Source: a virus
Taxonomy: Duplodnaviria; Caudoviricetes
Reading direction: 5' to 3' (one strand)
IMG/VR virus record: IMGVR_UViG_3300019458_000036
Span: 1-63,207 of that record
Length of the DNA: 63,207 bases
Of the stretch, positions 6,220 to 51,300 are shown one piece after another. Every line of letters begins with the position of its first letter. Within the stretch, counting starts at the first letter, position 1. A program made the position numbers and the translations under genes. The notes beneath the pieces were generated by a model that searched no databases, was not told the origin of the DNA, and worked only from the letters and a program-made list of their open reading frames with translations.

Positions 6220-6242
6220 GAAACCTCTCCCTAAATTATACC

Positions 6243-17188: not shown

Positions 17189-17504
17189 GCCCAACCTCGC
17201 CAACCTTCAGCAGTATGCCGCGCCAGGCGCGAACGGTAGAACCAAGATCCACTGCGTGGTCGGCCGCATTCATGATGGCATGCTTCAGGATGTTGTCTTC
17301 GTCGTCATCGAGGTAGATGTCTTCGATACCCTGCTCACGACTGGCCATCTCTAGCGGGCAAGCTAAAAAATTCTCGTCGTTCAAGAGGGTGCAGGAGCGA
17401 ATACGCCCAAGAGAGGTGACGTAGACTCCTTTGCTGGTTTCAGCCGCAGCGGCGTACTTGATGAGAAACTCACTGAGAGTTATGGTTGCTACTTGCTCAA
17501 TCAT
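17154..17504 (-). CDS. Hypothetical protein, paralog of 16904..17188
   Basis: Same motifs as the downstream ORF. Confidence 0.65.
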   Translation of the reverse strand: MIEQVATITLSEFLIKYAAAAETSKGVYVTSLGRIRSCTLLNDENFLACPLEMASREQGIEDIYLDDDEDNILKHAIMNAADHAVDLGSTVRAWRGILLKVGEVGRDRQRISHQVC

Positions 17505-18112
17505 TTATAAGCACCTGACAAGTGAGTGGACCGTGCGTCGTTTAGAACTTCAGTCAAAATTTGGTCGAGGTTTAGGACCCTGTGATAGTTACCGAGGTCG
17601 AGGCATCTCAGGTTGTAGGGTCTCGTGAGGAGATAGGTTTTCGCCTGCGGTACGACGTAGGCCATGTCGGCTGCGTGAACCGGATGGTCATCGATGTACC
17701 AAGTTAATCCTCGAGAAGCTACTACTCCGACAAACTCGTGCTTCTCCTCTGGCTCATCTACATAGCGCAGCTTGTCAAAGGGCACAGCTTCCAGGTCTCG
17801 CCTTGAGGCCTCTCGTCCCGCCTCACAGCGGTAGGACAAACCGATCACCTTGATGCCGGCAGCCCTGAGTTTCACCACGAACTCGAGCGCGTCCGGGTAG
17901 AGCTTGGTGGGGGTCGCGTAGATGTCCCGCCAGGTCTCCGAGTGCGGCGAGGGTTTTCCCAGGGCAGCGGTGGGAATGCCGTAAGCCTCCTCGAAGGTGA
18001 AACAGTGGGGCATTTCCAGCCAACCGCCGTATCGTCTCTCGAGGACCTTATGAATCGTGTGCTCAAGGTTGAGCAGCACGCCGTCAATGTCCGTGACTAG
18101 TGTTCGGGTCAT
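17501..18112 (-). CDS. HAD-family 5'(3')-deoxyribonucleotidase-like phosphatase
   Basis: DIDGVL motif I, LSYR motif II, YIDD motif IV, LTRPYN. Confidence 0.85.
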   Translation of the reverse strand: MTRTLVTDIDGVLLNLEHTIHKVLERRYGGWLEMPHCFTFEEAYGIPTAALGKPSPHSETWRDIYATPTKLYPDALEFVVKLRAAGIKVIGLSYRCEAGREASRRDLEAVPFDKLRYVDEPEEKHEFVGVVASRGLTWYIDDHPVHAADMAYVVPQAKTYLLTRPYNLRCLDLGNYHRVLNLDQILTEVLNDARSTHLSGAYK

Positions 18113-19120: not shown

Positions 19121-19459
19121 CTAGAAGTTCTTCCCGTGCTTGAAGGGTCTGCGCTTGTTGTACTCCATCTTCGCGATGATGGCCCCGGAGAGATCGAGAT
19201 TCAGGATCCCAGCGAGGTCCAAGATCCGGATCACGGCATCCGCCAGCTCTTCCGTGACCGCGAGATAGTCCGGGATCTTCGAGCTTGATTTTCGGCCGTC
19301 GCCCTCGCGAAGGGCCTCGAGGGCCTCGGAAAGCTCCGAGTGAATTAGCGCGATCTTTTCGCTCGGCAGAATGCCGGTGGGGCCCTGGTGGAATCCGTGG
19401 TCCTCGCTGTTCCGCCACGCCTCGGCTTGAAGACGCCGCATTGCTAGATCGAAGCTCAT
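19121..19459 (-). CDS. MazG-like NTP pyrophosphohydrolase
   Basis: IALIHSELSEALEALR...EELADAVIRILD...KMEYNKRRPFKHGK. Confidence 0.9.
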   Translation of the reverse strand: MSFDLAMRRLQAEAWRNSEDHGFHQGPTGILPSEKIALIHSELSEALEALREGDGRKSSSKIPDYLAVTEELADAVIRILDLAGILNLDLSGAIIAKMEYNKRRPFKHGKNF

Positions 19460-19460
19460 G

Positions 19461-20021
19461 TTAGTCTCCCGTGATAAGTCGGTAGGTCTTTGCCTCGGTG
19501 CGCTCAATCCACTTGAAGTCATAGATGCGATAGCCATACTCGTTGAGCTCCTTCCGGGCGCGGTCGAGAATCTCTTGGCGTAGTCCCTTTTGCTCCTCGA
19601 CGCTCAGCAGGTCATCGAGCGGCCGGCGGATGATGGTTTCCGCTATGGCTGACCGAAGCGCGGCCGATACGGCGCGGTCCTCGTCGCCGAGAGTGGTTTG
19701 CCAGATGACGACCTTCTCAGGCAAGATGCTGAGCCGAAAGAAGCCCGTCACGCGGACTTTCTTCCCGTCGGCGGTCTGTAAATCTTGCGCCCAGAGCGTT
19801 ACCAGCTCGTGGCGTGTCGAGGTGTTGTCCTCGAGCTCAATCCACAGGGGCCACTTGAGGTGCAGGCCGGTCCTGAAGAAGCCCGGCTCTCCGGGCCTGA
19901 TGACCCTCGTGGCGTTGCCGAGAAGATACACGACGGTAAGGGTACCTTCGCGCACGGGGATAACCCAAAATCGGAAGAGGTCAACGAAGTTGATGAGGAG
20001 CTCTACGAGCTTGTCAAACAT
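19461..20021 (-). CDS. SPFH/Band-7 domain protein
   Basis: GLHLKWPL, QDLQTADGKKVRV, ALRSAIAE, ELNEYGYRI. Confidence 0.75.
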   Translation of the reverse strand: MFDKLVELLINFVDLFRFWVIPVREGTLTVVYLLGNATRVIRPGEPGFFRTGLHLKWPLWIELEDNTSTRHELVTLWAQDLQTADGKKVRVTGFFRLSILPEKVVIWQTTLGDEDRAVSAALRSAIAETIIRRPLDDLLSVEEQKGLRQEILDRARKELNEYGYRIYDFKWIERTEAKTYRLITGD

Positions 20022-20861: not shown

Positions 20862-21617
20862 CTAGTACTCCTTGGTTTCCGAGAGCACCTCGGCGTCTTC
20901 CGACTCCTCGCGGTCGATGACCACCTGGCGGTCCCTCATCGACTCGTAGAAGGCCTGCGCCTGCTCGTAGAGGGTCTCATTGACCCAGCCCGGGAGGCCA
21001 CCCTTCAACGTGACACCCGCGTTCTTCACGATGTACACCGCATAGGTGAACCCCTTCTTGCTGGTCTCCATCCTCGAGGTGAGCTCATAGAGCCCGGCAA
21101 ATGAGGGACCACCGCGAAACTTCATGAGCGAGTTGAGGGCCTTGGCGACCGACACCGCCGACCCCTTGAGGGAGAGGGCAACGGGCTCGAAGGCCTCGGT
21201 TGCGGGGTCGACGCGCAGCGCGATGAAGTCGTAGAACTTGACCGCAGTGGGCTTCTCGCCACGGGGCCCGAACATCAGTCGAGGGTCATTCAGCGGCACG
21301 TTGAGGTCCTTGATGCCGCCTCCCTCCTCGAGCGGGAAGAACTCCACGCCCCGGGGCCTGTCGGCCCGCACCACCGTAAAGTAGATAGGTCCCTTGCCGT
21401 AGTTTTGCCCGGTCAGCGAGTTGAACATCTCGCCCTGCTTGAGGCCCGCGATGTACTTCGAGCTCGACTCCACCATCTGCGGAGATAGCGGTTGGGCGAG
21501 CCCGATGCGCGGCATTTGAAGGTCATCTTTGGTAATGTGCTCCGTGCCGCGAGCGTCGTTAGCCTTGAGAAATGAGGGAACCAGTGCTTCGCTGGAAACT
21601 ACTAGGTCATTCGCCAT
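20862..21617 (-). CDS. Putative single-stranded DNA-binding protein
   Basis: 251 aa. GTEHITKDDLQMPRIGLAQPLSPQ N-terminus, acidic C-terminal tail, strong AAGGAAG RBS, replication module. Confidence 0.65.
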   Translation of the reverse strand: MANDLVVSSEALVPSFLKANDARGTEHITKDDLQMPRIGLAQPLSPQMVESSSKYIAGLKQGEMFNSLTGQNYGKGPIYFTVVRADRPRGVEFFPLEEGGGIKDLNVPLNDPRLMFGPRGEKPTAVKFYDFIALRVDPATEAFEPVALSLKGSAVSVAKALNSLMKFRGGPSFAGLYELTSRMETSKKGFTYAVYIVKNAGVTLKGGLPGWVNETLYEQAQAFYESMRDRQVVIDREESEDAEVLSETKEY

Positions 21618-21638
21618 GTTGCTTCCTTTCTTTTGTTT

Positions 21639-21926
21639 TTAACAGCCGCCCTTGATGAAGGCGGTTTTCATGACCCGGTAAGCGTCACCCCACGATGATC
21701 GTGAGGCAGCCGCTATGAGGTCAAGCTGACAGCGCAACTTGATGAGCTCCTGCTCGCGACCTTCAAGTCGTTGCTGAAGCTGCGCAATGATCACGGATTG
21801 GGCGTGCAGCGAGTCATTTGTCCGGCGCTCATTCTCGACCAGCTGCTCATTGAGGCTCTGTTGCTCCCGGGCAACGAGGGTGAGCACGAAGGTGAGAACA
21901 ACGAGGAGACCGGTAACGGCTCTCAT
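21639..21926 (-). CDS. Membrane-anchored coiled-coil protein
   Basis: N-terminal hydrophobic helix followed by heptad-rich sequence. Confidence 0.55.
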   Translation of the reverse strand: MRAVTGLLVVLTFVLTLVAREQQSLNEQLVENERRTNDSLHAQSVIIAQLQQRLEGREQELIKLRCQLDLIAAASRSSWGDAYRVMKTAFIKGGC

Positions 21927-22420
21927 TGGCTCCTCAGCACGAGCTTAGCCCTGACGTAGGCCTCGACACCCTCGGGAAGGGGCTTACCGTCAAGAAGCAA
22001 CTCCTTCACAAGGGAGGCCAGGGTCCCGGAATGCGGCGCCAAGGCCTCCTCCATACCGTTGGCGACAAACCAGCGCCGCAGAGCCTCGCGGTCCTTGACC
22101 TGCGGAATGGGGAGCAGCTCAACGGAGACTGACTGCCCGGTTTCCGCGACGCGAACCTTCGTGATTCCGGCCTCTTCATATGCCTCGATGAGGAGCTCCG
22201 TGACAGCCAGCAGCTCCTCGTTGATCGGCTTCAGCAGCTCTTCGACGGCGTCCTTCTGCTCGCGTACCTGCACGTAGCGCCGAGAGAGGGTAGCTGGGGT
22301 AGCTTCACCCGCGTTGGCGAGCTTTGACTTCAGCGCGTCGACGCGCTGACGCCCCTCGGAGCGGTCTTCGGTTTGCGGCTCTCGCTGCAAGCCTCTGTTC
22401 ACCTCGTCATATTTACCCAT
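21923..22420 (-). CDS. Conserved phage replication-module coiled-coil protein
   Basis: 165 aa. VKDREALRRW...TLASLVKELLLDGKPLPEGV pattern typical of genes next to phage SSB. Confidence 0.65.
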   Translation of the reverse strand: MGKYDEVNRGLQREPQTEDRSEGRQRVDALKSKLANAGEATPATLSRRYVQVREQKDAVEELLKPINEELLAVTELLIEAYEEAGITKVRVAETGQSVSVELLPIPQVKDREALRRWFVANGMEEALAPHSGTLASLVKELLLDGKPLPEGVEAYVRAKLVLRSQ

Positions 22421-23393: not shown

Positions 23394-24428
23394 TTAATGG
23401 CGCGCGGCTTCGTCGACGTACACGGGCGTCGTCCACGTGCGGCCCCTGTGCTCGTCGATCACGGTGAAGGTTTGCCGAGGCGGTTCCGGTGACGCCTTGA
23501 TGGAAAGGGCGTACGCGTTGTACCCGATTAGCGATCCATTCGCCATGAACTTGCCGCCGTCCAAGTACTGGTGGAAGTGCCCGAAGAAATCGACATCAGC
23601 GCGACGCCCTTTGTCCCATTCGGCGATGGCCTTGTTGACGGGAATGGTGATACCGCCAATCCCTCCGTGGTACATTACGGCGTGCCCATGATGAAAACGC
23701 ACCGACACACCGAAGACGTTGAGGTATGAGTGGTAGGACTTCGGTGTGATGAACGTGACGCGGTCATCCTTGCTGAAGGCCCGGGCGAGTGAACGGTACA
23801 TCAGATACTCCAGCGAATGGCCGTGCTCTTGAGCGAAATGGATGCGCCTGGTGACCCGCCCGTGGTTGCCAGAGTGGCAGATCACGGTGAGCTTTCGTTC
23901 CTCGCCGCGATCGAGAAGGTGTGCGATGCCCGAGGCTAGAAGATCCTGCGCGAACTCGGCGGCCTCCATCGGCCGGAGAGCGCAGTTCTCGGCGCTATCC
24001 TCGTGAAGGTTGTTCGTGATGAAGTCGCCGCCGAGGAAGAGCACTGTCTGCTGAAAGTCAAGGGTCGGCTCCAGGATCTTAATGAGCCGCGCTTGCGTGG
24101 CGAAAAAATTCTTCCCTCGCCGCTCCGCGACATCGGGGTTGAACACGTTCAACCCGGAGACCGATTCCGGCGTAACGATCTCCTCGACGTGCCAATCGCT
24201 TGCCACGAGGATAGCCACTCCCCGCGTCTTATTGGTCCTGGGCTCCTGAGGCTCGATGTCCTCGGCCACGGGACGCCCGAGAGTGTCGATGGCGTCTAAC
24301 TGAGTTTTGAGCTCAGCTGCTTCGCGTTGAGCTTCGTCCCGTTGTCGCCGCAGGTCACGGCTTTCTTTCTGAAGCAACTCCCTCTCGCTAGGCTTCAGCG
24401 TTTGTCGGGCTAACTCTCTTGGGTCCAC
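23394..24428 (-). CDS. Calcineurin-like metallophosphoesterase with N-terminal coiled coil
   Basis: SDWH, GGDF, SGNHG, FHHGH, GHFHQ, NGSLIG. Confidence 0.9.
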   Translation of the reverse strand: MDPRELARQTLKPSERELLQKESRDLRRQRDEAQREAAELKTQLDAIDTLGRPVAEDIEPQEPRTNKTRGVAILVASDWHVEEIVTPESVSGLNVFNPDVAERRGKNFFATQARLIKILEPTLDFQQTVLFLGGDFITNNLHEDSAENCALRPMEAAEFAQDLLASGIAHLLDRGEERKLTVICHSGNHGRVTRRIHFAQEHGHSLEYLMYRSLARAFSKDDRVTFITPKSYHSYLNVFGVSVRFHHGHAVMYHGGIGGITIPVNKAIAEWDKGRRADVDFFGHFHQYLDGGKFMANGSLIGYNAYALSIKASPEPPRQTFTVIDEHRGRTWTTPVYVDEAARH

Positions 24429-24688
24429 GGCTCCACTCCTTCAGCTGCTCTTGCTTTGCAGCCGGCGCACTCGTCTCTGAGATGGATTCGGATCACGTCA
24501 AGCGAAACGGCAACCCCCATACCTTGCATCTTTTCCTTGACCCTTGTCCCCACGACCTCGTGACCGGCTTGCCGATACTCGTTGAGGGCTTTCCAGAACT
24601 CGAGGGCATCTCCACTCAATCGAGCCACGAAACACTTCTTGTTGCTGTGCATCACGGTGCACTCCTCTAGCAGCGCTTTGATGTTCAC
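24410..24688 (-). CDS. Hypothetical protein
   Basis: 92 aa, C...HLRDECAGC putative metal site. Confidence 0.55.
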   Translation of the reverse strand: MNIKALLEECTVMHSNKKCFVARLSGDALEFWKALNEYRQAGHEVVGTRVKEKMQGMGVAVSLDVIRIHLRDECAGCKARAAEGVEPWTQES

Positions 24689-25101
24689 GGGGCTTTCCCT
24701 TCTACTTTGGCGGAAAAATACTCCAGGAGCAAAGCCGCTGAGCCCTCAGTTGGCCGGTCATCGAGGATGTTTCCCTTTTCGATGGCGTCAAGAAGAATCG
24801 CTGCATCTGCGATGACGTGGCCGAGGTGATGCACACCAGAGTCTTTGGCGATGTTCTCGCCATCGATGAGAGCATAGACATGCCGCAGCAGCGCATGGAG
24901 ATAGACCATGTAAGAAACTTCAGCGGACTCGCGGAAGTTGAACTCTCCATACTTCTCGGCCCCGTAGGCCATGGCCCGGGCACCGTGGATGACGCCGGCA
25001 GCAGGGACGAGGGCAAGCGGAACTCGCTTGTGCCCGATAGCGTGCTTGGCGTTTGCTGTCGTCACTTTTTCTTTCATGTCCGCGGTTTTATCGAAGGTCA
25101 T
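24685..25101 (-). CDS. dATP/dGTP diphosphohydrolase (DUF5664-type)
   Basis: KRVPLALVP...MAYGAEKYGEFNFR...ALLRH...GENIAKDSGVHHLGH. Confidence 0.88.
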   Translation of the reverse strand: MTFDKTADMKEKVTTANAKHAIGHKRVPLALVPAAGVIHGARAMAYGAEKYGEFNFRESAEVSYMVYLHALLRHVYALIDGENIAKDSGVHHLGHVIADAAILLDAIEKGNILDDRPTEGSAALLLEYFSAKVEGKAP

Positions 25102-28740: not shown

Positions 28741-29235
28741 TTACCCTGCCTCCGCGGTAATGCGGGACCGGTATGCCTCGGATCTTGTATAGTCATGTCG
28801 CTCAAAGTGTAGAGGTAGGTGATAGAGCACCTCCTCGAAGCGCGCGTAGCTTCGCCTGAATAGATCCTCTGTGTTAACTTGGTCACCTGACTTGAGCTTC
28901 TCTCGCCAATTTTCTTGACACACGTCGAATGGCGGCAGGCAGATGATCCACTTGGGCATTGCCCACAAGGTGAAATCCACGAAGGTTTGAATATCGCCAA
29001 GAGAAACTTGAAAGTGATCTCTCAGTAGCGGCCCATAGACATACTCACTCACGATAAAGCGGTCGAAGATGGCGCTCGAGTTACGATAGAAGAGGTCGGC
29101 AAAAAAACTCATCGCGACAACTCCAGGCGGCACCCCTAACACATGGTAAACGGGTATGCAGAGCGCTGTTCGCGCATACTCTTTAGCGAGGGTGCTCTTT
29201 CCGGCCCCGTCAGGTCCGTCAAGCACGTAGATCAT
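28741..29235 (-). CDS. Deoxynucleoside monophosphate kinase-like P-loop protein
   Basis: LDGPDGAGKST, IFDRFIVSEYVYGPLLR. Confidence 0.85.
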   Translation of the reverse strand: MIYVLDGPDGAGKSTLAKEYARTALCIPVYHVLGVPPGVVAMSFFADLFYRNSSAIFDRFIVSEYVYGPLLRDHFQVSLGDIQTFVDFTLWAMPKWIICLPPFDVCQENWREKLKSGDQVNTEDLFRRSYARFEEVLYHLPLHFERHDYTRSEAYRSRITAEAG

Positions 29236-29292
29236 GAAACCCCCAGAAAATTGCGTGCGCGTATCTAGGAGTCGCGCCCCTCCCTGGGCCAA

Positions 29293-33606: not shown

Positions 33607-35569
33607 TCAATCTCCTCTTGGCCCACATGGCCTCCACGCGAGCTTTCTGCTCGTCAGTGAGCGTCGCCTCTGGCTTGGCACCCTTCTTTGCGTCATTCCA
33701 GTTAGGACCGGTGGCCGCGTCCCAGAGAATGGGGACACGAAATGGAATTGCCTGCTCATTGAGCACCTTTTCCAGCTCGATGGCCATGTGCTCGTCAGGG
33801 ATGTCCCCGCAGAGCTCATCGTGTACCGTCAGTCGCATGGTGAAACCGAGCTCCTTGCGCACGGCATAGGCGTCGCACATCTTGAGTTTCATTACGTCAG
33901 CTGCCGTTGGCTGAATGATTGAGTTGAGCGCCTTGTGAAACTTCACGGCCTTTGCCGCTACGGCATTGGCCGGAAAGCGAGCACGACGCCCGAGGATTGA
34001 CTTGATGTACCCGCGCACGCGTGCCGTGTTTTGAGCCTCGGTCATCAGTCGCCCCGGTGCCGGAAACCGCTGGTGATAGAGCTTGTAGAGTGACTTCACG
34101 TCGGCTACCGGCAACCGTAGCATCTCCGCTACCTTGTCTGGCCCGGCCCCATAGATGATAGAGAAGTTCACCGTTTTAAGGTTATCGTAGGCGATGTCTG
34201 GTTGCACCTCTTGCACCATCTTCATGACGAGCTTGTGATAGGAGAGGTGGGGGTCCTTGGCGTAGGCCTCGAGGATCTCCTGGTCAGCTGCGTAGTGCGA
34301 GAGGATACGATACTCGATCTGTGCGGCGTCGGCGGCAAACCACAAGTTACCAGGATCGGGGATGAAGAGCTTCTTCACCATGTAGAGGTCACCGACGATG
34401 TTCGAAAACTTGTAGTTGCGGTGAGTCCCCGTGAAGACCTGCTGGAGGTTGGCTCCGATGCTCTCCCCGTCAATCCTGTAACCCGAGGAAGAGTAGCGGC
34501 CCGTAATGGTGCCGCCCTCGTCACCCAGCAGCTGGTGGAAGGAGGTGCGAAGCCGAAGCCCGTCAAGACCCTCGATGTACTTCACGATGAACTTCGAGCG
34601 CATTGACTCGAGACCCTTGATCTTGGTCGCGAGGGCCACTATCGGGTGGTCGAGGTAGGCCTCGAGGGCATTGGAGGTAAAGCCGACTCGCTTGAACTTC
34701 TTACCGTGCTTATCGGTCACCGTGATCTCGGGGTAGGGTATCTGGAGCTTGTCAAAGAGGGTACGCCAGCCCTTTGGCGAGTCCTTGAACTGCAGACCTA
34801 TCTCTCGCTTGATTGACTGCTCGTAGTCATAGAGCTTCTCTTTCGTGTCCTTCTCCCAAGCCAGGAGGAGCTCGACATCGAGGAGGGTAGGGTTGCGCTC
34901 CAGCTCACAGGTCGGGTAGATGCAGCGGCTCTCGAGGCTGAGGACTCGCTCAAGGTCTTGGTCAACGATGCTCGGCATCATTGCCTCATGGAGCATTCCC
35001 GTGAGCAAGGCATCTTGTCGAGCATATGAGGCCACGAGAGCTGCGTGTACCTCAGTCAACTTTCGGATGTCGGTGCCGAGCTTGACTTTCTGGTGCTCCT
35101 CACCCAGATAGTCGCGGGCAATCGCGTTCAACGAGAAACCTTGAGGCGGGTGACCGGCCCAGGGCTTCGCCCGTAGGTCATCGAGGAGGGCCGCGAGGTG
35201 GCCCGTGTCTACCCAGGCGCAGTCCTGAGCCTCGAGGTCGATGCCCCACTCGTAGAGCATGTGATTGTCGAACTTCGCGTTGTGGCCCACGAGCAACTTA
35301 CTTCGGAGCTCGCGGCGTGCCCACTCCTTGACCGCCGCCTCATCGAGGTTGCCCCCGGCGTGACCGAAGCCCAGATAACGAGTCTCCCACCGTTGCCCAT
35401 CTTTCCACGCGACGGCAATGCCGAGGGGCCGGTGACCGGTCCACCACTTGAGGCCCGTTGTCTCGGTGTCGATTACCACCGTGTGCGCGTCAGTGAGCCG
35501 GGGTGGCTGGTCAGGAATATAACCCGAGGTTGAGGGTGAGCTACGAGGCAGCGGGAGCTGGAAGGTCAC
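33581..35569 (-). CDS. polA: Family A DNA polymerase with 3'-5' exonuclease
   Basis: DTETTG, GHNAKFD, YARQDA (exonuclease). TITGRYSS, DAAQIEYR (motif A), KTVNFSIIYG (motif B), TVHDE (motif C). Confidence 0.95.
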   Translation of the reverse strand: MTFQLPLPRSSPSTSGYIPDQPPRLTDAHTVVIDTETTGLKWWTGHRPLGIAVAWKDGQRWETRYLGFGHAGGNLDEAAVKEWARRELRSKLLVGHNAKFDNHMLYEWGIDLEAQDCAWVDTGHLAALLDDLRAKPWAGHPPQGFSLNAIARDYLGEEHQKVKLGTDIRKLTEVHAALVASYARQDALLTGMLHEAMMPSIVDQDLERVLSLESRCIYPTCELERNPTLLDVELLLAWEKDTKEKLYDYEQSIKREIGLQFKDSPKGWRTLFDKLQIPYPEITVTDKHGKKFKRVGFTSNALEAYLDHPIVALATKIKGLESMRSKFIVKYIEGLDGLRLRTSFHQLLGDEGGTITGRYSSSGYRIDGESIGANLQQVFTGTHRNYKFSNIVGDLYMVKKLFIPDPGNLWFAADAAQIEYRILSHYAADQEILEAYAKDPHLSYHKLVMKMVQEVQPDIAYDNLKTVNFSIIYGAGPDKVAEMLRLPVADVKSLYKLYHQRFPAPGRLMTEAQNTARVRGYIKSILGRRARFPANAVAAKAVKFHKALNSIIQPTAADVMKLKMCDAYAVRKELGFTMRLTVHDELCGDIPDEHMAIELEKVLNEQAIPFRVPILWDAATGPNWNDAKKGAKPEATLTDEQKARVEAMWAKRRLIDKVEPVR

Positions 35570-35979
35570 GGGTAGAGCCGCTCTCTCAGCTCAGTTACAC
35601 ACTCTTCGGGAGCTTTGACTCCCGTGTCGAGGGTGTAGACTTGCCCAAAGCTGGTTTCCGTGTGAAAGTACCAGTCAAAGAATTCGCTAGCGGCCTCGAG
35701 GTCCTCGGTAAGCGGGTCGCCCTTGGCTCTCTGACGCTCGTAGGCCAGCTCAGGTGCACAGCGCAACCAGATGACCCACACGTCGGCGATGAGCTGCAGC
35801 TTACGGTTCATGGGTTCGTAGTCCACCCGTGGGCGGTTGTAGAGTAGGTTGTAGACCCAACACGAGGGTGTCCACCGGTGCATGATGGGGTCAGCGAAGT
35901 TGGAGAGGGCCGAGATGGGGTGCACGAGGGTCGACTTGCCGGCTCCGGAGATTCCCTCGAGGATGATGATGCGCCGCAT
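35566..35979 (-). CDS. Thymidylate-kinase-like P-loop protein
   Basis: IIILEGISGAGKST, HRWTPSCWVY, WLRCAPELAYER. Confidence 0.8.
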   Translation of the reverse strand: MRRIIILEGISGAGKSTLVHPISALSNFADPIMHRWTPSCWVYNLLYNRPRVDYEPMNRKLQLIADVWVIWLRCAPELAYERQRAKGDPLTEDLEAASEFFDWYFHTETSFGQVYTLDTGVKAPEECVTELRERLYP

Positions 35980-36941
35980 CAGCGAGCTCCAAAAGCTTGC
36001 AGGTCAGAGTAGCACAAGTTGTCCAGACCCTCTTGGCCAGTGGGTAAGCCTTCCTCGCCCTTAGGAAGGTAGATTCCGAGGTCCGACATCAGGCGCTCAC
36101 GTGAGGTGCACGCCTCGTTGAACGTGAAGTCCTCTCGCACCTGAGCCCGGTCACAGGGCCAACGACCCGAGCACCGAAAGAGGTTGCCATATTCCTCACC
36201 CTCGTGTTCCGTGCATCGGCGGGCCCAGTCAGCTCCGGGGCGGAGGTAGCTCCCGAGGAGCGGAAAGATCTCGAGGACCCTCTCCCTCATGAGCCACGCG
36301 GTGGCCACCGTGTCCTCCTGCTCGTTGAACATCAGGCGCTTGCTGCAGAAATTTTGCAGGGCCATGTAGGAGAAGGCAATGGTGAAACGATGGCAGGCCG
36401 AGATAGGAAGAGCAGCCCTCGCGTCCTGCCACGAGCCGTTGTTCGCGAGCATCGACATGAAGTCCTGCTTATCGCGATGTCGTCCCGCCTTAAAGATGTC
36501 GAGCTTCACGGGATCATTGGCGATAGAGGAAGGCACGCGAAAGTCAATGTCGTCATGACAATTGTCGCGCCAGCCCATCGACCCAATCACTACCCCGATG
36601 CGAGCCCGGGCGATCTGGTCAAACGCCGACCTCGAGAGGCCCGCCACCTCAAACACGAAGGTCATCGCCTCAAGGGCATTTGGAAGTGTCTTGCGCCGCA
36701 GGCAAGAGGTTACGACGTGAAGCCGCGACGCGGGTGAGAGCTTGTCCCAGCGACCCGTGGCCCAGGCATTACCCCACGTGGCGGTGACCATCGCCACGAT
36801 GGCTCGATAGGGATTGACTGGGTGGTCGACGAGGCGCACTTGAATACCTCGAACCCCGAGATAGAAGTGTGTGGTCTGAAAGTCCAGCTGAGCCTTGGGT
36901 AAGGTGCCGATCTCTTGTCGAAGTTCGAGGTTAGACATCAT
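35979..36941 (-). CDS. thyX: Divergent flavin-dependent thymidylate synthase (ThyX-like)
   Basis: LEAMTFVFEVAGLSRSAFDQIARAR, QDARAALP, NFCSKRL. The RHRxnS signature is altered. Confidence 0.75.
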   Translation of the reverse strand: MMSNLELRQEIGTLPKAQLDFQTTHFYLGVRGIQVRLVDHPVNPYRAIVAMVTATWGNAWATGRWDKLSPASRLHVVTSCLRRKTLPNALEAMTFVFEVAGLSRSAFDQIARARIGVVIGSMGWRDNCHDDIDFRVPSSIANDPVKLDIFKAGRHRDKQDFMSMLANNGSWQDARAALPISACHRFTIAFSYMALQNFCSKRLMFNEQEDTVATAWLMRERVLEIFPLLGSYLRPGADWARRCTEHEGEEYGNLFRCSGRWPCDRAQVREDFTFNEACTSRERLMSDLGIYLPKGEEGLPTGQEGLDNLCYSDLQAFGAR

Positions 36942-37839
36942 CTTCCTTTCTGTACTCGTGCTGATAGAGCTCGTTAAGCGATCTCACGGGAGTGACTCGA
37001 GGGTTGGGTGAAGAAGCTTCCTCGGTGAGCCAATAGGCCTTGCGGCCTACGGCCGCCACCGAGGCACAGGTGGCGAAGTCGTCATCGACGAACGCCGTGC
37101 AATTCTTGAGCAGCTGGTCAAAGAAGAGGGCCTTGGAGCTCTCGGCCCAGTAGATCTTGTCGAAGGGCACCTCGTTGTCCACCAACCACCGCAAGGTGTC
37201 GTGCTCGAGGGAGGGGTAAAGCTTTCGAGGGCGATAGGTAATGAGCGCGATTGACCAGCCAACGGCCCTGAGCCTCTGGAGAGTTCGAATGTTGGCGACG
37301 TCAGGAACTCCGTGGACCTTGGCTCCCGAGGCCCGGTACTCGTGCTTCGCTTGCTCCCACTCAAGGGGATTGCGACCCTTGCTCACAACCAGGAGTTCGG
37401 GGTGGCGTTGCTTGAGCCACTGGTTGAAGGACACCGTGTACTTAAAGATCACGTTGTCGATGTCGCAGGCGAGTCCCGGAATCATGACCACGCCTTGCTC
37501 ACAGCGCCACCGCTCCTCAACGACGAAGGACTTGCGGTCATAGGCTCCACAGATATCGGAGTAACTGAATCCCAGAAGTTGAGCCAGTGCCCAGAGGTAC
37601 TTCTGCACGTCAACTATCTCGTCAAGGGCTCCCGACTCCTTGACGATGTAGTCTCTTGACCGGTGCTTCTTCCAGTCCAAGGCGTCGAGGAGCTCGTCAA
37701 GCTCCCGGTGGAGGCACAAGATGTACTCCTTGGCCCACGTGACTCGCTGGAGCTCCGTGGGGTTGTCGAGCTCCACCCCGTTGACTCTCAGGAAAGTCTT
37801 GGTGAACTCTCGCTGGCGAGTGAACCGGGCATCGGTCAT
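36931..37839 (-). CDS. Fusion of dimeric dUTPase/MazG-like domain and HAD nucleotidase-like domain
   Basis: ELDELLDALDWKKH...DEIVDVQKY...YDRK, then CDIDNVI, LITYRP, FVDDD. Confidence 0.82.
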   Translation of the reverse strand: MTDARFTRQREFTKTFLRVNGVELDNPTELQRVTWAKEYILCLHRELDELLDALDWKKHRSRDYIVKESGALDEIVDVQKYLWALAQLLGFSYSDICGAYDRKSFVVEERWRCEQGVVMIPGLACDIDNVIFKYTVSFNQWLKQRHPELLVVSKGRNPLEWEQAKHEYRASGAKVHGVPDVANIRTLQRLRAVGWSIALITYRPRKLYPSLEHDTLRWLVDNEVPFDKIYWAESSKALFFDQLLKNCTAFVDDDFATCASVAAVGRKAYWLTEEASSPNPRVTPVRSLNELYQHEYRKEDDV

Positions 37840-38612
37840 CTCAACCTCCCGAGGATGTCGGTGTACACGGTGTGAGTCAACATGCTCTTGTCCCAGGCGC
37901 CGTAGCGGCCTGTCCACAACACCTGTTCCGGTACCCCTTCCCACAACTTTCGGTCAGCGGTGATAACCTTGTGAACCTGCACGTAGCCCTGGCTCTTGAA
38001 GAATCTCCACAAGCTGACCTCGGGCGGCACGAGCTTCTCGGTTGCCTGAGTTTCGAAGACTTGGGACACCCGGGTCCAGTCCTGCTCACCGGCGTTATAC
38101 CACACGTAGCCGAAGTTGCTCATCGGCACGGGGCGGTGTCGAACCAGGATGGGCCTTGACTGAAAGTCACCCTTCAGCAGGACCCGAGCCGGGATGGTCA
38201 CGATGACCCTGTCGTAAAAGGCTCCGAGGTCGAGCACCTTGCCCAGCTCCGTGAACTCCCGCTCGCAGATGTTTTCTCGAAATAGGGTCTTGAGCTGGGT
38301 CACTGCGTCGCCGGCGTGATAGACACGCTCGAGACCACGGTGGAAAGACACCGGTTGCTCTGGGTTGCCGTAGACCTTTTCCGCGTAGGTAACCCTGGCC
38401 CGAGCCTCGCTCCAGTGTCGAGGGAGATGACTGGTGAAGGTCTGCTGCTCCCTCACGTTGAGCCCGCAGTCCTCGTGAAGGTAGAACACCCCGTGGTTCT
38501 TGGTGGCCACCTCGGGGTTCTTGTCGAAGAGCGTCACGCTGTGGCCCAGGTTCACGGTGGCCCAGGCCGCCATGAGTCCCGAGGGACCAGCGCCGATGAT
38601 CGCAACCTTCAT
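37836..38612 (-). CDS. FAD-dependent oxidoreductase (minimal UDP-galactopyranose-mutase/amine-oxidase-like fold)
   Basis: VAIIGAGPSGL, VIVTIP, WTRVS, C-terminal GRYGAW. Confidence 0.75.
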   Translation of the reverse strand: MKVAIIGAGPSGLMAAWATVNLGHSVTLFDKNPEVATKNHGVFYLHEDCGLNVREQQTFTSHLPRHWSEARARVTYAEKVYGNPEQPVSFHRGLERVYHAGDAVTQLKTLFRENICEREFTELGKVLDLGAFYDRVIVTIPARVLLKGDFQSRPILVRHRPVPMSNFGYVWYNAGEQDWTRVSQVFETQATEKLVPPEVSLWRFFKSQGYVQVHKVITADRKLWEGVPEQVLWTGRYGAWDKSMLTHTVYTDILGRLR

Positions 38613-39049
38613 GTGATTCGGTACCTCTTGAACAACCGCGAGTACTCCTCGAGCCTCGCGTAGCGGAAACGCTTCCAGAAAGCCGGGTGAGGGACGGGCA
38701 CGGCCCCGGGATGCAGTCTCTGGGCCACCTTCCCGAGAGCGAAAATGACCGCCCAGGAACGGTTCAGCGCGTTTGTCTGGGGGAGCCCCCGTGGGTTACC
38801 CAGGAGGTCTAGGGAGTTCGCCCAGGCCAGCGTTTTCTCGCGGAAACCGGCGAGGTGTAGGGCCCGGGTGAGGTAGGGTCCGCAGCCACCCGGCCCGCAA
38901 AAGGGGATCTCCCGGGTCACGGTCTCCGGGTTGCCCATCTGCTCCCCGACGATGAGGTAGCGGGCCGCTGGCGAGCCCACCATCCACTCGGGATAGTGGC
39001 CGGCGGCCCAGGCAACCCGTCTCGTCACGATGTCTCTGTACTCTATCAC
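38609..39049 (-). CDS. Uracil-DNA glycosylase superfamily protein
   Basis: LIVGEQ.G, PF.G, WAN, VIFALGKVA, VPHPAF. The true start may be slightly downstream. Confidence 0.75.
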   Translation of the reverse strand: MIEYRDIVTRRVAWAAGHYPEWMVGSPAARYLIVGEQMGNPETVTREIPFCGPGGCGPYLTRALHLAGFREKTLAWANSLDLLGNPRGLPQTNALNRSWAVIFALGKVAQRLHPGAVPVPHPAFWKRFRYARLEEYSRLFKRYRIT

Positions 39050-39069
39050 CGGTTATTATCTCTTGTCAA
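39040..39069 (-). promoter_or_regulatory. sigma70-type promoter heading the nucleotide-modification/polymerase operon
   Basis: TTGACA-N18-TAGAGT. Confidence 0.65.
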
Positions 39070-39636: not shown

Positions 39637-39665
39637 AGTGTATCGCGGTTTTTATCTTTTGTCAA
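39637..39665 (-). promoter_or_regulatory. sigma70-type promoter
   Basis: TTGACA-N17-TACACT. Confidence 0.8.
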
Positions 39666-47128: not shown

Positions 47129-48328
47129 CTATACCCCAACTCGAAACTCCTGTCTCGCCTGATGTTCTACTTTAGGCCCGGGCTTTAACCCCACGTACCG
47201 CTCAATCATCGCCCCTTGAAGTAACCCGGTCATCGAGGATTGCATCGATTGGCAGTAGCCCGGGAGCACCCGGAAGCGGTTCGCCGGGTCCGTTCCGTCG
47301 CTCCCCACGTAGCGACAGTGGCAACCACCGAAAGAGACGGGGTTGGCGACACAGTTTGAACAGCTGAAACCGGGCGGCTGGATCATCTGGTCGTTTCGGA
47401 TTCCCGACACGTCAGCAAGCCGCTCGAGGTCTATCACGGGATCGCGGTTCACGTCCCCTACCCGGTAGTGCAGGTCCGTCCCCGGCGCCCGGCCCGGCTC
47501 CAGAGTGGTGAAGGCCATCTCTTGACTCGGGTAGAGCCACCCCTCGGGCGTGAGGGCGAGCATGTGAAGGCCCGTGCCGCACGGCTGGTCGGGTTTCACG
47601 AGCTTGAGGAAAGCCTCGTCGAGCTTCGAGATCATGTTGGAGCTGAAAGGCGGTCTCTCGCCCCGACGCGACTGGATGGAGAGGCGCGCCACGTGGCGCA
47701 TGAAGACCTCGAGGGCGATGCGCTGCTCGCCGTTCCACTCCTTAAGCCAGTTGAGGTTGAAGTTAATCCTCGAGAAGCCTCTCTGGATCATCCAGTCGAG
47801 GTGGGCCGCTGTCGGCACGCGGTCCGGGTCGAGCTGCCACGCGATCTCGATGCCAGGGCGCCAGGCGAGGATGTCGTCGACGGGGATGTCCTGCCAGCTC
47901 GGCTTGCCGCCGTAGTAGGGGCGCGCGAGGTTGTGCAGTTCCGGCGGCCCGTCAAGGGAGAGGAGGATAGCGACGCGGTGGCGGTCGAGGATTTCCCTCG
48001 CGCGGGCATCGAGCATCGTGCCGTTAGTGGTGACGGACCACTGGAGCTCCTTGCCGGCGCTCTTGAATGCCGCGTCCCAGGTCGGCATCGCGCGCTCCAT
48101 CAGGTCGAGGTTTAGCAGCGGTTCGCCCCCGTACCAGACGCACCAGAGGCCACTCGCGGCCCAAGTCGATGCCCAGGGTAGGGCTTTTTCGAGAAGGGCG
48201 TCATCCATCATCTTTAACAGGCCCTTCTCTTTTTGCCAGCCCCACGCGTGACTTCCTTGATAGCAGTACGAGCAATTCAAGTTGCAAGTTCGCGTATTCA
48301 CGATCCAGAGAGTTTCGGTGGTGGCCAT
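47129..48328 (-). CDS. Radical SAM protein with SPASM-like C-terminal domain (399 aa)
   Basis: True start MATTETLW (TAATG overlap). CNLNCSYC, YGGEPLLN, TTNGTML, SLDG, then CGTG...GWLYPS...CSNC...GGCHC...YC. Confidence 0.93.
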   Translation of the reverse strand: MATTETLWIVNTRTCNLNCSYCYQGSHAWGWQKEKGLLKMMDDALLEKALPWASTWAASGLWCVWYGGEPLLNLDLMERAMPTWDAAFKSAGKELQWSVTTNGTMLDARAREILDRHRVAILLSLDGPPELHNLARPYYGGKPSWQDIPVDDILAWRPGIEIAWQLDPDRVPTAAHLDWMIQRGFSRINFNLNWLKEWNGEQRIALEVFMRHVARLSIQSRRGERPPFSSNMISKLDEAFLKLVKPDQPCGTGLHMLALTPEGWLYPSQEMAFTTLEPGRAPGTDLHYRVGDVNRDPVIDLERLADVSGIRNDQMIQPPGFSCSNCVANPVSFGGCHCRYVGSDGTDPANRFRVLPGYCQSMQSSMTGLLQGAMIERYVGLKPGPKVEHQARQEFRVGV

Positions 48329-51300
48329 TACACCCGCTCCGAGACAGTCTGACAGTTCGACTGACAGGTTGACTGACAAGTCGATTGACAGGTATCTTGA
48401 CAACTGAGCTGACACGTCGCCTGCTTGCACGCCGTTGCTTGGCACGAGGTCTGACACACGGCGTTGCAGTCTACTTGAGCACTCATCTGACAAGCCTGTT
48501 GACAAGCAAGCTGGCAGTTTCCCTGACAGCTGAGCTCGCAGGTTGACTGGCAGTTGATCTGACAAGTTGTCTGGCACGAGCTCTGACAAGTCGTCTGACA
48601 GCCCGCGCCCTGGCAAGTCTGGCACGTGCTCTGACAGGTTGTCTGACAGTTGATCTGGCAGGTCGTCTGACACCCGCGCTGACAAGTCGTCTGGCAGGAT
48701 TGCTCGCAGGTGATCTGACAGGCCGCCTCGCAGTTGCCTTGGCACGATGTTTGACAGGTGTTCTGACACACCGCCTCGCAGCCGACCTGACAGGATGTTT
48801 GGCAGAACTGCTGACACTCCACGATGCACGCCGCCGAAGCAACGGTCACGCGATCATCCGTTGCCTCTACCTCAACCGTACCGCCAAGAGGATTCTTGCT
48901 CAACGAGATGATGCGAAAGATGTCATTCGCTAGAACTCCTCCGCGCGCAAACCCTCGCTGCCTCGAGAGACGAAACTTGTCGCCCACCTCGAGCTTCATC
49001 AACTTCGCGCCGAGCACCGTGAGCTTGATCTTGCGGGCCGCGGTCTTCGCGAGCTCGAGGAGCCGCCCCGATGCGGTAATGGCGTTAGTCGCGTTCTTCA
49101 AGTAGGTCTCGAACTCCCGGATATCCGGTCGGCCGAGCCGCACCGTAACGGACTCGTCAGTTGACTCCCGGGCCTCGAAGATCCCCGTGTCCGGGTCCTG
49201 ATCGTGCTTCACGCGTACGGTGGTGAAGACCTCGGTGTTGGAGGCACCCGAGTCGAACTTCGCGATATCCGAGTCCCGAACATCGAGGATGTTGTCCGGC
49301 ACATCGCCAACGTAGACATGGTAGAAGACCTTGCCCTCGCCGTTGACGATGATGTTGGCGATGTTCGAGTACTCCAGCCGGTCGAAGATCTCCTTCGTCG
49401 TGGTTGACTCGTTCATGTAGATCGCCAATGACTCAGGAGCTCGCTCGCGGCTAAACTCAAAAGAGGTCTCGTCAATCACCTCTGGGCTCTTGTGCATGTA
49501 GCTCACGAGAAGTGTCCGGCAGATGTCGGCCCCGATCTCGATGAGCGAGTTGCTCGACCCCGTGAATGTGCCCGCATCGTCGTCCTTGAAACCTTGGGCA
49601 TCGACTCGCAAGATGTGATTCTTGTCCACGTCGGAAAAGGTCGCGTTGTCGCCCTCGTAGCTTAGGGCTCCGGTCTTATCAGCCGAGAGGTTGTAACCCA
49701 GTGTCTTATAGCCCGCGATGGCCGCATTGGTCCCAGTCTTGACGAGGAGCTGTAGGGTGCCGGAGATCTTGCTGATGGTGAATTTGTGAGTCGTGGTAGA
49801 TAGCGAGCACGCGATCGCGGCACCCGACGCTGCCGTCATCTTGTCCGCCACCTCGGCCGCGATGGCCGGGCCGGTGTAGACTCCGACCGTAAGGGTAGCC
49901 ACCAACGAGCTGGCGCCGATGTTGAAGTCCAAGCGACGGTTTGTCTCGTCAATCGTATAAGGCCCAACGTCGGTGACGACGGAGAATTGCCCGTTAGCTA
50001 GGTCTTGAGTAAAGTCACTAGACAAGAGGGTTGCCGCCAAGTCCGTTCGATTATTAGTCGCATCCTGATCCGAGGGGAACGCAAGAATCTGGTCGATCGC
50101 TAGAATGCCTGCCGGTGACTCGGTACAGTCGGCAATCTCATACGTCCCAAAACTCGTTGTATCACTGGCATCAATTCGCGTCGGATCGATATGCTCCTTC
50201 ACGCCGAAGAAGAGCGGGCGAACTCGGCCCTGTTTTCGGGTGTCGAGGTTCCCGAAGCTCACGTCATCGTAGACGCGCGTCGGAAGCTTGAGGTGAAAGT
50301 AGACCCGCTGATCTTGCAGGTCGAAGCGAGCTTCCTGATCCGTGAAGCCTATCGATTGAACCAGCCCGGTGAATCCGCGAAACCAGTCATCTAGAAGAAT
50401 CTCCTGCAGGTCTCCGCTGAACTGCCCGCCCACGTTAACCAACACCTCTTGGTTCATCCACTCGAGTTCTGCCGCCAACCGTTCAAGCAAGCCATCGTGG
50501 TTCAACAGACTCACGCTACCCGAGCCGATTGACTTGCCGCCAAAGAAAAGGTCATTGCTCCCAGTCTGGATGGCTGGCACCGAGGCCGCGGTGAGCCTGG
50601 GCTCGTACCAGTTGAATCGATAGATGCGCTGCATCTGGAGTCCATCAAAGATGGTGGAACCAATGGCACCCCCGGCGGCAATGGCCCCGAACTGAAACTC
50701 GTGCTCGGTATCGAAGGCAATAAAGTCGAAGACGAACCTGCGCCACTCTGAGCCAGTCCGGTCAAGATTAACCCAATCTGGCGTTGAAAGCAGCGTTCGC
50801 CCGCGAGTATATTCAATGGATACTGTCCTGGCAGTATTACCGACCCGGAATCTGGCATCAATGTCTCCAGATGTCTTATACCAGCCGCTGGCCCTGTACT
50901 TCTTACCGACGACGAGCCCGTCGATCGTCAGCGAGATATCCCTGGTCTGGCCAGAGAGGACATCGAGCTCGACGGCGGATGATCCGTCTCTGACATCCGA
51001 TGTATTCTGAATCACGGATTCGGTGAGCGGATCCCAGATAACTGGGCCGTCCCACAGGGTCGCGCTATCATCCCAAAATGGAATGCCGGACCCGCCCATG
51101 CCCCAGCCTTCGGGACCGAGCCCGTCATCGAGCCAATCCTCGAAGCTCCCAACACCGTCTAAAAGATCTCGGCCGAGTACAGGATGGACCTGCTGGTCGC
51201 CCAGAGATGTCCGGCCGGCCGCCGAGAAGTAGAATCCCAGCGCCGCCACCGAGGAGGTTTCGCCCGGGTCGGTTTCGTCATCCAAGTGGGCGATGAGCAC

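Follow-up and report, generated by a model that had tools for sequence, protein, structure and literature searches.

A phage nucleotide operon around a ThyX-like enzyme with a rewritten active site: a possible route to a 5-substituted pyrimidine

Layout of the operon

The DNA analysed here is the IMG/VR virus record IMGVR_UViG_3300019458_000036 (Duplodnaviria; Caudoviricetes), and the whole stretch of 63,207 bases, with a CheckV completeness of ~72%, is referred to as the window. Its minus strand carries nearly all of its long open reading frames (ORFs), among them six consecutive genes encoding, in order, a UDG-like protein, a small FAD protein, a dUTPase/MazG-HAD fusion, a ThyX-fold enzyme, a Tmk-like kinase and a DNA polymerase, PolA; it is this operon, and above all the rewritten active site of its ThyX-fold enzyme, that is our subject. 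A preliminary description, made from the letters of the DNA, had placed all six coupled genes behind one promoter and had seen in them a route to a modified DNA base. The first of these claims holds: a sigma-70-like site lies at 39069-39040, and the stop codon overlaps the next start at all five junctions (in gene order, ATGA, ATGA, ATGATGTCTAA, TGATG and GTGA). The same strand has its next sigma-70-like site where PolA ends (33606-33578); PolA closes the coupled set and is joined to the kinase gene by the GTGA overlap. The features of the operon are as follows:

39069-39040, minus strand: promoter-like site, TTGACA-18-TAGAGT, sigma-70-like, heading the operon
39049-38609, minus strand: UDG-like protein, 146 amino acids (aa) as listed (Pfam UDG, 24.1 bits)
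38612-37836, minus strand: small FAD-binding protein, 258 aa (FAD-Rossmann; nearest profile UDP-galactopyranose mutase, UGM)
37839-36931, minus strand: dUTPase/MazG-HAD fusion, 302 aa, with its real start at the ATG at 37839 (phrog_173, phrog_415, phrog_420)
36941-35979, minus strand: ThyX-fold enzyme, 320 aa (Pfam Thy1, 59 bits)
36608-36564, minus strand: rewritten active-site loop of that enzyme, RARIGVVIGSMGWRD, residues 112-126 (from the sequence and alignments)
35979-35566, minus strand: YorR/thymidylate-kinase-like nucleoside monophosphate kinase (P-loop), 137 aa (phrog_761)
35569-33581, minus strand: PolA, family A DNA polymerase with a 3'-5' exonuclease domain (DNA_pol_A 167.6 bits, exonuclease 39.8 bits)

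The overlap of the promoter-like site's -10 element with the GTG at 39049 makes an in-frame GTG near 39028 a possible alternative start of the UDG-like gene. The first 20 bases of the same site recur at 39646-39665, upstream of the preceding gene (two matches against 0.01 expected); as a 20-nt word, TTGACAA[AG]AGATAA[AT]AACCG, the element thus stands at 39646-39665 and at 39050-39069 (minus strand), ahead of consecutive transcription units, and it may be a phage-specific early or middle promoter.

The ThyX-fold enzyme and its active site

The ThyX-like protein scores well above the cut-off of Pfam Thy1 (59 bits against 24.8) and below that of the NCBIfam thyX equivalog, TIGR02170 (41.6 bits against 87.9). 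Its AlphaFold2 model (pLDDT 92) has leading Foldseek matches that are all ThyX or PolB (probability 1.00; TM-score by target up to ~0.79), and judged from this model the protein has the ThyX fold. A single-sequence phmmer search of the PDB gave no matches; the family profile reaches M. tuberculosis ThyX in the PDB at 7e-12.

In the portions available of the papers cited here and below, canonical ThyX is described as passing a folate methylene via the flavin to C5 of dUMP, after which the flavin reduces the exocyclic methylene (PMC8989533, PMC11940539). Ser88 and Tyr91 are strictly conserved and critical, Tyr91 hydrogen-bonds to His53, and in a Tyr91 mutant flavin oxidation is 1000-fold slower (PMC11940539). 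We set the T. maritima numbering by counting along the printed alignment, a count that reproduces the Ser88 and Tyr91 of PMC11940539, and took residue statistics over 180 members of the clade to which the window protein belongs. The motif RARIGVVIGSMGWRD, which the preliminary description had quoted correctly, reads R-A-R-x8-G-x-R-D against the canonical RHR-x7-S-x-R-Y, and the canonical signature is therefore absent. The arginines of RHR correspond to R112 and R114, with Ala in place of the intervening His; this position, 113, is variable across the clade, with His in 6/180 members and Ala in 109/180. The Tyr91 position is taken by Asp126 (Asp in 166/180, Tyr in 0/180), which is followed by Asn at position 127 (158/180), and the His53 position is Leu86 (Leu in 173/180). 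Since Leu stands at His53 and Asp at Tyr91, both partners of the hydrogen bond are replaced throughout the clade.

The changes of His to Ala and Tyr to Asp, both read from the sequence in the preliminary description, are reproduced in two alignments, one made with HMMER to M. tuberculosis ThyX and the other with hhalign to a ThyX-like protein of a phage. These two alignments place a gap of one residue in the loop, and in the resulting register Gly123 (168/180) occupies the position of Ser88 and Arg125 (153/180) that of Arg90. The further change that had been proposed, Ser to Gly, stands in this gapped register and depends on the one-residue gap, and is, therefore, less certain than the others: an ungapped alignment with T. 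maritima ThyX shifts the register by one, and a conserved Ser121 (140/180) lies two residues upstream of Gly123. In either register, the canonical positions hold neither Tyr nor His.

The nucleotide-binding arginines are retained (R112 in 173/180, R114 in 174/180, R175 in 178/180 and R202 in 174/180) and, because they are, the pocket appears still to be built for a nucleotide. Additionally, the pocket region has acquired conserved acidic residues, namely D108 (154/180), the aforementioned D126, and E207 (159/180). The variant has in common with canonical ThyX (T. maritima TM0449, M. tuberculosis) the fold, the Pfam Thy1 match, the RxR arginines and two later arginines; it differs at the three positions described above, in a loop that is one residue longer (S-x-G-x-R-D-N in place of Ser-x-Arg-Tyr), in a C-terminal extension of ~90 residues, in its failure to reach the equivalog cut-off, and in belonging to a separate clade. 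The extension (residues ~230-320; 35979-36260, minus strand) shows a Cys-rich pattern, with up to four conserved Cys residues in relatives, of which the window protein lacks the first and third; it could be a metal site or a disulfide.

All seven long homologues tested (P0003, P0005, P0006, P0036, P0039, P0056 and the protein encoded at 5980-7425 of locus L023) carry inteins or Hint domains, and these are inserted at two sites: in the active-site loop, or just past the second rewritten motif, after R202. Because inteins insert there, their placement marks both rewritten motifs as apparently critical for function. Other uncultured ThyX-like subfamilies (P0044-P0146) share the motifs L-P-x-x-L-E and G-G-R-D-N-D-W, with T-H-Q-L-V-R-T-R replacing F-D-Q-I-A-R-x-R; the loss of His53 and Tyr91 therefore extends beyond the clade studied here.

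Searched exhaustively, the cluster representatives yielded 262 relatives of the protein, 35 of them below 1e-30, and a word-indexed search found 138, all metagenomic; those that are named are called 'thymidylate synthase ThyX', a database name that may be wrong clade-wide. In a tree of 119 representatives, the window protein falls inside a 45-row clade (SH-aLRT 100), and the canonical RHR...SxRY proteins form a different one (support 97), which includes the canonical copies of phages that also carry the variant. The variant clade is nearly confined to viruses: the bacterial and archaeal species-representative genomes contributed four contigs, all from metagenome-assembled genomes. Among cultured phages, none of which carries the clade, tblastn with the ThyX-like protein gave only 11 weak matches, all to canonical ThyX, and tblastn with the kinase and with the fusion gave none.

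Companion genes and conservation of the module

The protein that had been described simply as an FAD oxidoreductase is indeed an FAD-Rossmann protein, but not a generic one, in that its nearest relatives are UGMs. It has the motifs GxGxxG, STIP and GRYGxW, and the best PDB matches of its family profile are to UGMs (5.7e-8), with similarity at the Rossmann start, along ~90 residues in the middle and at the GRxGxW end. At 258 aa, against ~390-510 aa for UGM, it lacks the full three-domain UGM architecture with its UDP-sugar-binding domain. Its model is a two-domain flavoenzyme fold (pLDDT 87), one that a fold search assigns no more clearly to UGM than to D-amino-acid oxidase, VioD or renalase. 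The nearest Atlas clusters are 96-100% viral, and by this measure the protein is a phage-specific family. A predicted complex of the ThyX-like and FAD proteins scored 0.01, which gives no answer either way.

The fusion was correctly recognized in the preliminary description, and the catalytic motifs of both halves are conserved: ExxE...EExxD in the first half, and DxDxV, RP, K and D in the second, are invariant or nearly so. The best PDB profile matches of its N-terminal domain, an all-alpha NTP pyrophosphatase, are dimeric dUTPases (3.4e-6). The kinase, initially assigned as a dNMP kinase, can be refined by its family profile to a YorR/Tmk-like enzyme (SPbeta YorR at 7.7e-26, then Tmk at 3e-14, in the PDB), and 11 of 13 members of the family match PF02223, the Pfam thymidylate kinase family.

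The UDG-like protein lies 0.2 bits below the Pfam UDG cut-off of 24.3, and weakly matches family-4/UdgX glycosylases over GEQxG...PFxG (E 0.04). Its motifs are family-4/UdgX-like (GEQxG, PFxG, an Asn and HPxF), and it aligns with clear UDG-family ORFs of loci L004 (55.6 bits) and L019 (42.9 bits). Genes of this kind adjoin the kinase again in L018, L019 and L021. In the closest related contig, a 299-aa ORF (L002, 2852-3751) fuses a Tmk-like kinase to a UDG-like domain; the window's UDG-like protein aligns with the C-terminal half of this ORF, and the UDG-like domain there is 32% identical to it. Because of this fusion, the sequences suggest that the UDG-like protein works with nucleotide enzymes, beyond DNA repair alone.

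A scan of viral contigs for the variant gave 23 loci, in which L003/L006/L013, L011/L012 and L020/L021 are duplicates by their identical coordinates and scores. By BLAST, the fusion adjoins the variant in 21 loci. Iterated profile searches of the ORFs of 24 loci (several of them duplicates) recovered the fusion most often, in 22, with the FAD protein in 21 and the kinase in 20, and so the conservation of the neighbourhood, which the preliminary description had put forward as a check, is borne out. The usual order is FAD protein, fusion, ThyX-like protein and kinase; the loci without these companions are L022 (a 5.5-kb fragment) and L023. Gene order, coupling and conservation thus show a pyrophosphatase, a candidate C5-modifying enzyme and a Tmk-like kinase to be encoded together with a polymerase. 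In some modules there is also a radical SAM enzyme, an aldo-keto reductase, an NDP-sugar epimerase-like protein or a methyltransferase; in L015 and L017, a radical SAM/SPASM enzyme stands beside an aldo-keto reductase. Near the module in L004, L019 and L023 are ORFs that look, by eye only, like dCMP deaminase.

A second, canonical-score Thy1 gene (132-163 bits) shares a contig with the variant in 5 of the 15 related contigs (G002, G007, G010, G005 and G013), and the two coexist in 3 of the 5 complete related genomes. The three canonical copies examined show RHR...S.RY/F. No match to PF00303, the ThyA family, was found in the window, and of the 9 related records tested only G008 had one, weak and truncated. 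In L018 (2992-3462) and L019 (4470-4997), a short ORF (156-175 aa) lies between the kinase and the NDP-sugar epimerase-like gene; it weakly resembles ThyA over that protein's C-terminal half (27.8 bits).

Elsewhere in the window are a glycosyltransferase and three further genes:

19032-18109, minus strand: TAGT/beta-glucosyl-HMC-alpha-glucosyltransferase family protein, 307 aa (PF20691, 31.8 bits against a cut-off of 27.5; phrog_842, 60.5 bits)
17501-18112, minus strand: stand-alone HAD hydrolase (phrog_420, 4.7e-9; weak Pfam Hydrolase match)
19121-19537, minus strand: second NTP pyrophosphatase, MazG type, upstream of the glycosyltransferase (phrog_3301, 117.5 bits)
28741-29292, minus strand: second Tmk-like kinase of the window (phrog_761, 1.2e-13)

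The stand-alone HAD hydrolase lies directly downstream of the glycosyltransferase, and shares its PHROG with the fusion's HAD half. T6-like phages, which glucosylate 5-hydroxymethylcytosine, carry an enzyme of the TAGT (TET-associated glycosyltransferase) family, whose known members act on DNA with hydroxymethylated bases (PMC13390438), and the window's protein is, by its sequence family, a candidate for the addition of a sugar to a hydroxymethylated base in DNA. The family is also found in contig G012 (locus L021), ~4 kb from the variant. There (L021, 10349-11952), an ORF resembling PIG-L/LmbE deacetylases (by eye only) lies directly upstream of the glycosyltransferase gene, a hint that the decoration in this phage may be an amino sugar. 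Searches for generic GT2 enzymes and for phrog_842 showed that glycosyltransferases are no general companion of the module.

Proposed pathway, alternatives and known systems

We propose, with a probability of about 0.45, that the operon is a nucleotide-pool module that makes a non-canonical, uracil-derived 5-substituted pyrimidine dNTP for the phage's own polymerase; the end product of the module would probably be 5-hydroxymethyl-dUTP. The dimeric-dUTPase/MazG domain would convert a pyrimidine dNTP, most likely dUTP, to the monophosphate, and the ThyX-fold enzyme would then transfer the methylene of methylene-tetrahydrofolate via its flavin to C5. We suggest that the reductive step to the methyl group is not completed, and that the exocyclic methylene is instead captured by water or another nucleophile, giving, most likely, 5-hydroxymethyl-dUMP. 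Such capture of an unreduced methylene is plausible because Tyr91, mutation of which slows flavin oxidation, and its partner His53 have both been lost; moreover, acid-quenched ThyX reactions yield 5-hydroxymethyl-dUMP. The Tmk-like kinase would phosphorylate the product, with a host kinase completing the triphosphate, and the HAD domain would remove the competing canonical monophosphate. For the present phage, glycosylation of the base in DNA by its TAGT-family enzyme may follow. The UGM-like flavoprotein would be an obligatory companion, which could supply reducing power to a ThyX that is poor with NADPH; alternatively, it might carry out an oxidation or other step on the C5 substituent, or act in sugar-nucleotide chemistry. 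Uracil is favoured over cytosine as the starting base because the arginines are retained, the pyrophosphatase is dUTPase-like and the kinases are Tmk-like. Gene order, fold, motif, conservation, co-occurrence and catalytic motifs are observed; all the substrates and products of this scheme are ones that we infer.

The conserved module, the coexisting canonical ThyX, the viral clade and the glycosyltransferase together argue for a role in base modification over that of an ordinary thymidylate synthase, and to this extent the context supports what the preliminary description had proposed, although ordinary dTTP steps would also fit and the product is deduced. The replaced residues beside retained arginines, the intein sites, the intact catalytic motifs of the fusion, the lack of a ThyA-family gene in the window, its second MazG-type, HAD and Tmk-like genes and the additional enzymes of some modules count on the same side. 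Tentatively, and at rather less than even odds, the clade could represent the first ThyX-fold pyrimidine hydroxymethylase, or another non-reducing C5 transferase, and, with the UGM-like flavoprotein, the fusion and the Tmk-like kinase as its partners, a widespread flavin-dependent route to hydroxymethyl-pyrimidine DNA that arose independently of the ThyA fold, with TAGT glycosylation in the present phage.

A number of observations weigh against the base-modification proposal. A dUTPase, a thymidylate synthase and a thymidylate kinase are consecutive steps of ordinary dTTP synthesis, and the gene set alone requires no new chemistry. In the complete genomes G001 and G003, the variant is the sole thymidylate-synthase-like gene, a state that fits a plain dTMP role as well as a full replacement of thymine. 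The ungapped alignment with T. maritima ThyX leaves the loop ambiguous by one residue, and the fused phosphatase could destroy the enzyme's own substrate. The glycosyltransferase is 17 kb from the operon in the window, and its family turned up in just 2 of 16 records, the 5 complete ones all lacking it. The part of the genome that is missing from the window (~72% complete) could hold a ThyA-type hydroxymethylase or a TET enzyme; a TET/JBP search found nothing in 16 records, but its positive control was also silent, so that absence is not shown.

The most serious competitor, possible although to our minds doubtful, is an ordinary dTTP-supply operon, in which the variant, though divergent, is a true flavin-dependent thymidylate synthase, and the small flavoprotein serves as a reductase that offsets the loss of the His and Tyr. 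Beyond the three consecutive activities, this would account for the ThyX fold and a Pfam score over the cut-off, the retained nucleotide-binding arginines, the lack of any other thymidylate synthase in G001 and G003, and the label of ThyX given to relatives in databases; it would also suit Microbacterium phage Hager, in which a homologous FAD protein lies directly upstream of a 'ThyX-like thymidylate synthase'. It sits poorly with the loss of strictly conserved, critical residues from the whole clade, with a score under the NCBIfam equivalog cut-off, with the presence of a canonical ThyX alongside the variant in three of the five complete related genomes, with the fusion of a phosphatase to the dUTPase-like domain, and with a glycosyltransferase of a hydroxymethyl-base family in the window.

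Both a coexisting canonical ThyX, which fits continued dTMP synthesis, and a glycosyltransferase that matches a PHROG annotated as beta-glucosyl-HMC-alpha-glucosyltransferase would also be expected of a cytosine version of the pathway, with a dCTPase as the pyrophosphatase, 5-hydroxymethyl- or 5-methyl-dCMP as the product of the variant, and thymine still made by a canonical enzyme, as in T-even phages. The T4 dCTPase belongs to the same all-alpha pyrophosphatase superfamily as the domain of the fusion, and the new acidic residues D108, D126 and E207 in the pocket region could be read in the same way. We nevertheless consider this version unlikely: the kinase family groups with Tmk and YorR, the pyrophosphatase domain finds its best structural relatives among dUTPases, none of the arginines placed around the uracil ring in canonical ThyX has been lost, and there are the dCMP deaminase-like ORFs near the module in three loci. 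Finally, loss of the canonical catalytic residues, together with literature searches that gave no activity for any clade member, might mean that the variant is catalytically dead, and is instead a nucleotide-binding subunit or regulator of a replication or nucleotide complex, or that it acts on something other than a DNA precursor. This strikes us as quite improbable, given that the replacement motif S-x-G-x-R-D-N is itself highly conserved and is targeted by inteins, and that the gene is tightly coupled to those of enzymes with intact catalytic motifs.

The logic of the proposed hydroxymethyl-dUTP pathway would be that of known pre-replicative pyrimidine replacement, and the novelty would lie in a different fold and new companions. 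In the papers cited, the phage routes described as adding carbon at pyrimidine C5 before replication all use ThyA-fold enzymes (PMC8989533, PMC13390438); in one, a dUMP hydroxymethylase supplies 5-hydroxymethyldeoxyuridine (5-hmdU), which partially replaces thymidine, up to half (PMC8989533). With T4 (dCTPase, dCMP hydroxymethylase, dNMP kinase and glucosyltransferases) and the 5-hmdU phages, the present operon shares a pyrophosphatase, a C5 enzyme, a kinase and the phage's own polymerase, and its glycosyltransferase is of the T6-like-phage family. However, the central enzyme here has the unrelated ThyX fold, the window is without a ThyA-family gene, and the ThyA-fold pathways have no counterpart of the UGM-like flavoprotein or the fused HAD phosphatase. 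A precedent for the recruitment of the ThyX fold to another pathway is PolB, which methylates UMP/dUMP in polyoxin biosynthesis (PMC5954106) and which is among the structural matches (PDB code: 4p5b). PolB differs in that it is bacterial, is encoded in an antibiotic cluster and matches by sequence profile with an E value of only 0.12, whereas the variant clade is viral and encoded next to a polymerase. Literature searches combining ThyX with phage, modification and hydroxymethylase found neither this clade nor a ThyX-fold hydroxymethylase described, supplementary gene lists being outside the search.

A parallel in cultured actinophages is the gene pair annotated 'oxidoreductase' and 'ThyX-like thymidylate synthase' in Hager, whose gp53 is homologous to the FAD protein over its full length (hhalign 99%, E 3.7e-18) and directly precedes gp54. 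The latter is non-canonical (RQR...S.RF), keeping the Ser and Arg with Phe for Tyr; it is related to the variant clade at profile level alone (82%), and the portion available of PMC7302621 gives no function for it. Hager lacks the dUTPase-HAD fusion, gp55 having been considered as a member of that family and found by comparison to be unrelated. In Streptomyces phage Yara (L034, 5001-6424), the FAD protein precedes a HAD-domain homologue; gp48 of this phage, a further candidate, proved on comparison not to be ThyX-like. In Nocardia phage P3.1 (L029, 5995-8969), the FAD protein lies near a FabG-like short-chain dehydrogenase. In both Yara and P3.1, it has no ThyX-like neighbour, and lies upstream of a DnaE-type polymerase.

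If correct, the proposed pathway would be a second, independent origin of base replacement, and would offer a natural experiment on the ThyX residues that commit the methylene intermediate to reduction. It would also single out a group of uncultured phages, perhaps joined by some actinophages in culture, with DNA that may resist restriction and mislead sequencing-based methods.

The phage itself is distant from those in culture: megablast of 15 kb of the window against cultured phages gave no matches, and its PolA is only 27-29% identical to the PolA of known phages. The region is present in only two sequencing runs, both of them assembled contigs labelled cave metagenome. Among the other genes of the window, those named here being on the minus strand, is one for a 138-aa protein (24685-25101) with a dATP/dGTP diphosphohydrolase N-terminal domain (PF18909, 76 bits; phrog_801), of the MazZ type found in 2-aminoadenine phages. 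The PurZ route that this gene brought to mind was rejected, there being no match to PF00709 (adenylosuccinate synthetase) in the window; the adjoining 344-aa ORF (23394-24428) encodes an exonuclease or phosphoesterase. At 47129-48829 is a gene for a 566-aa radical SAM protein (PF04055, 44 bits; phrog_1802), and two proteins encoded at 20862-22420 match Pam3 gp33-like and gp34-like families (PF23984 and PF23977), a link to a cyanophage-type lineage.

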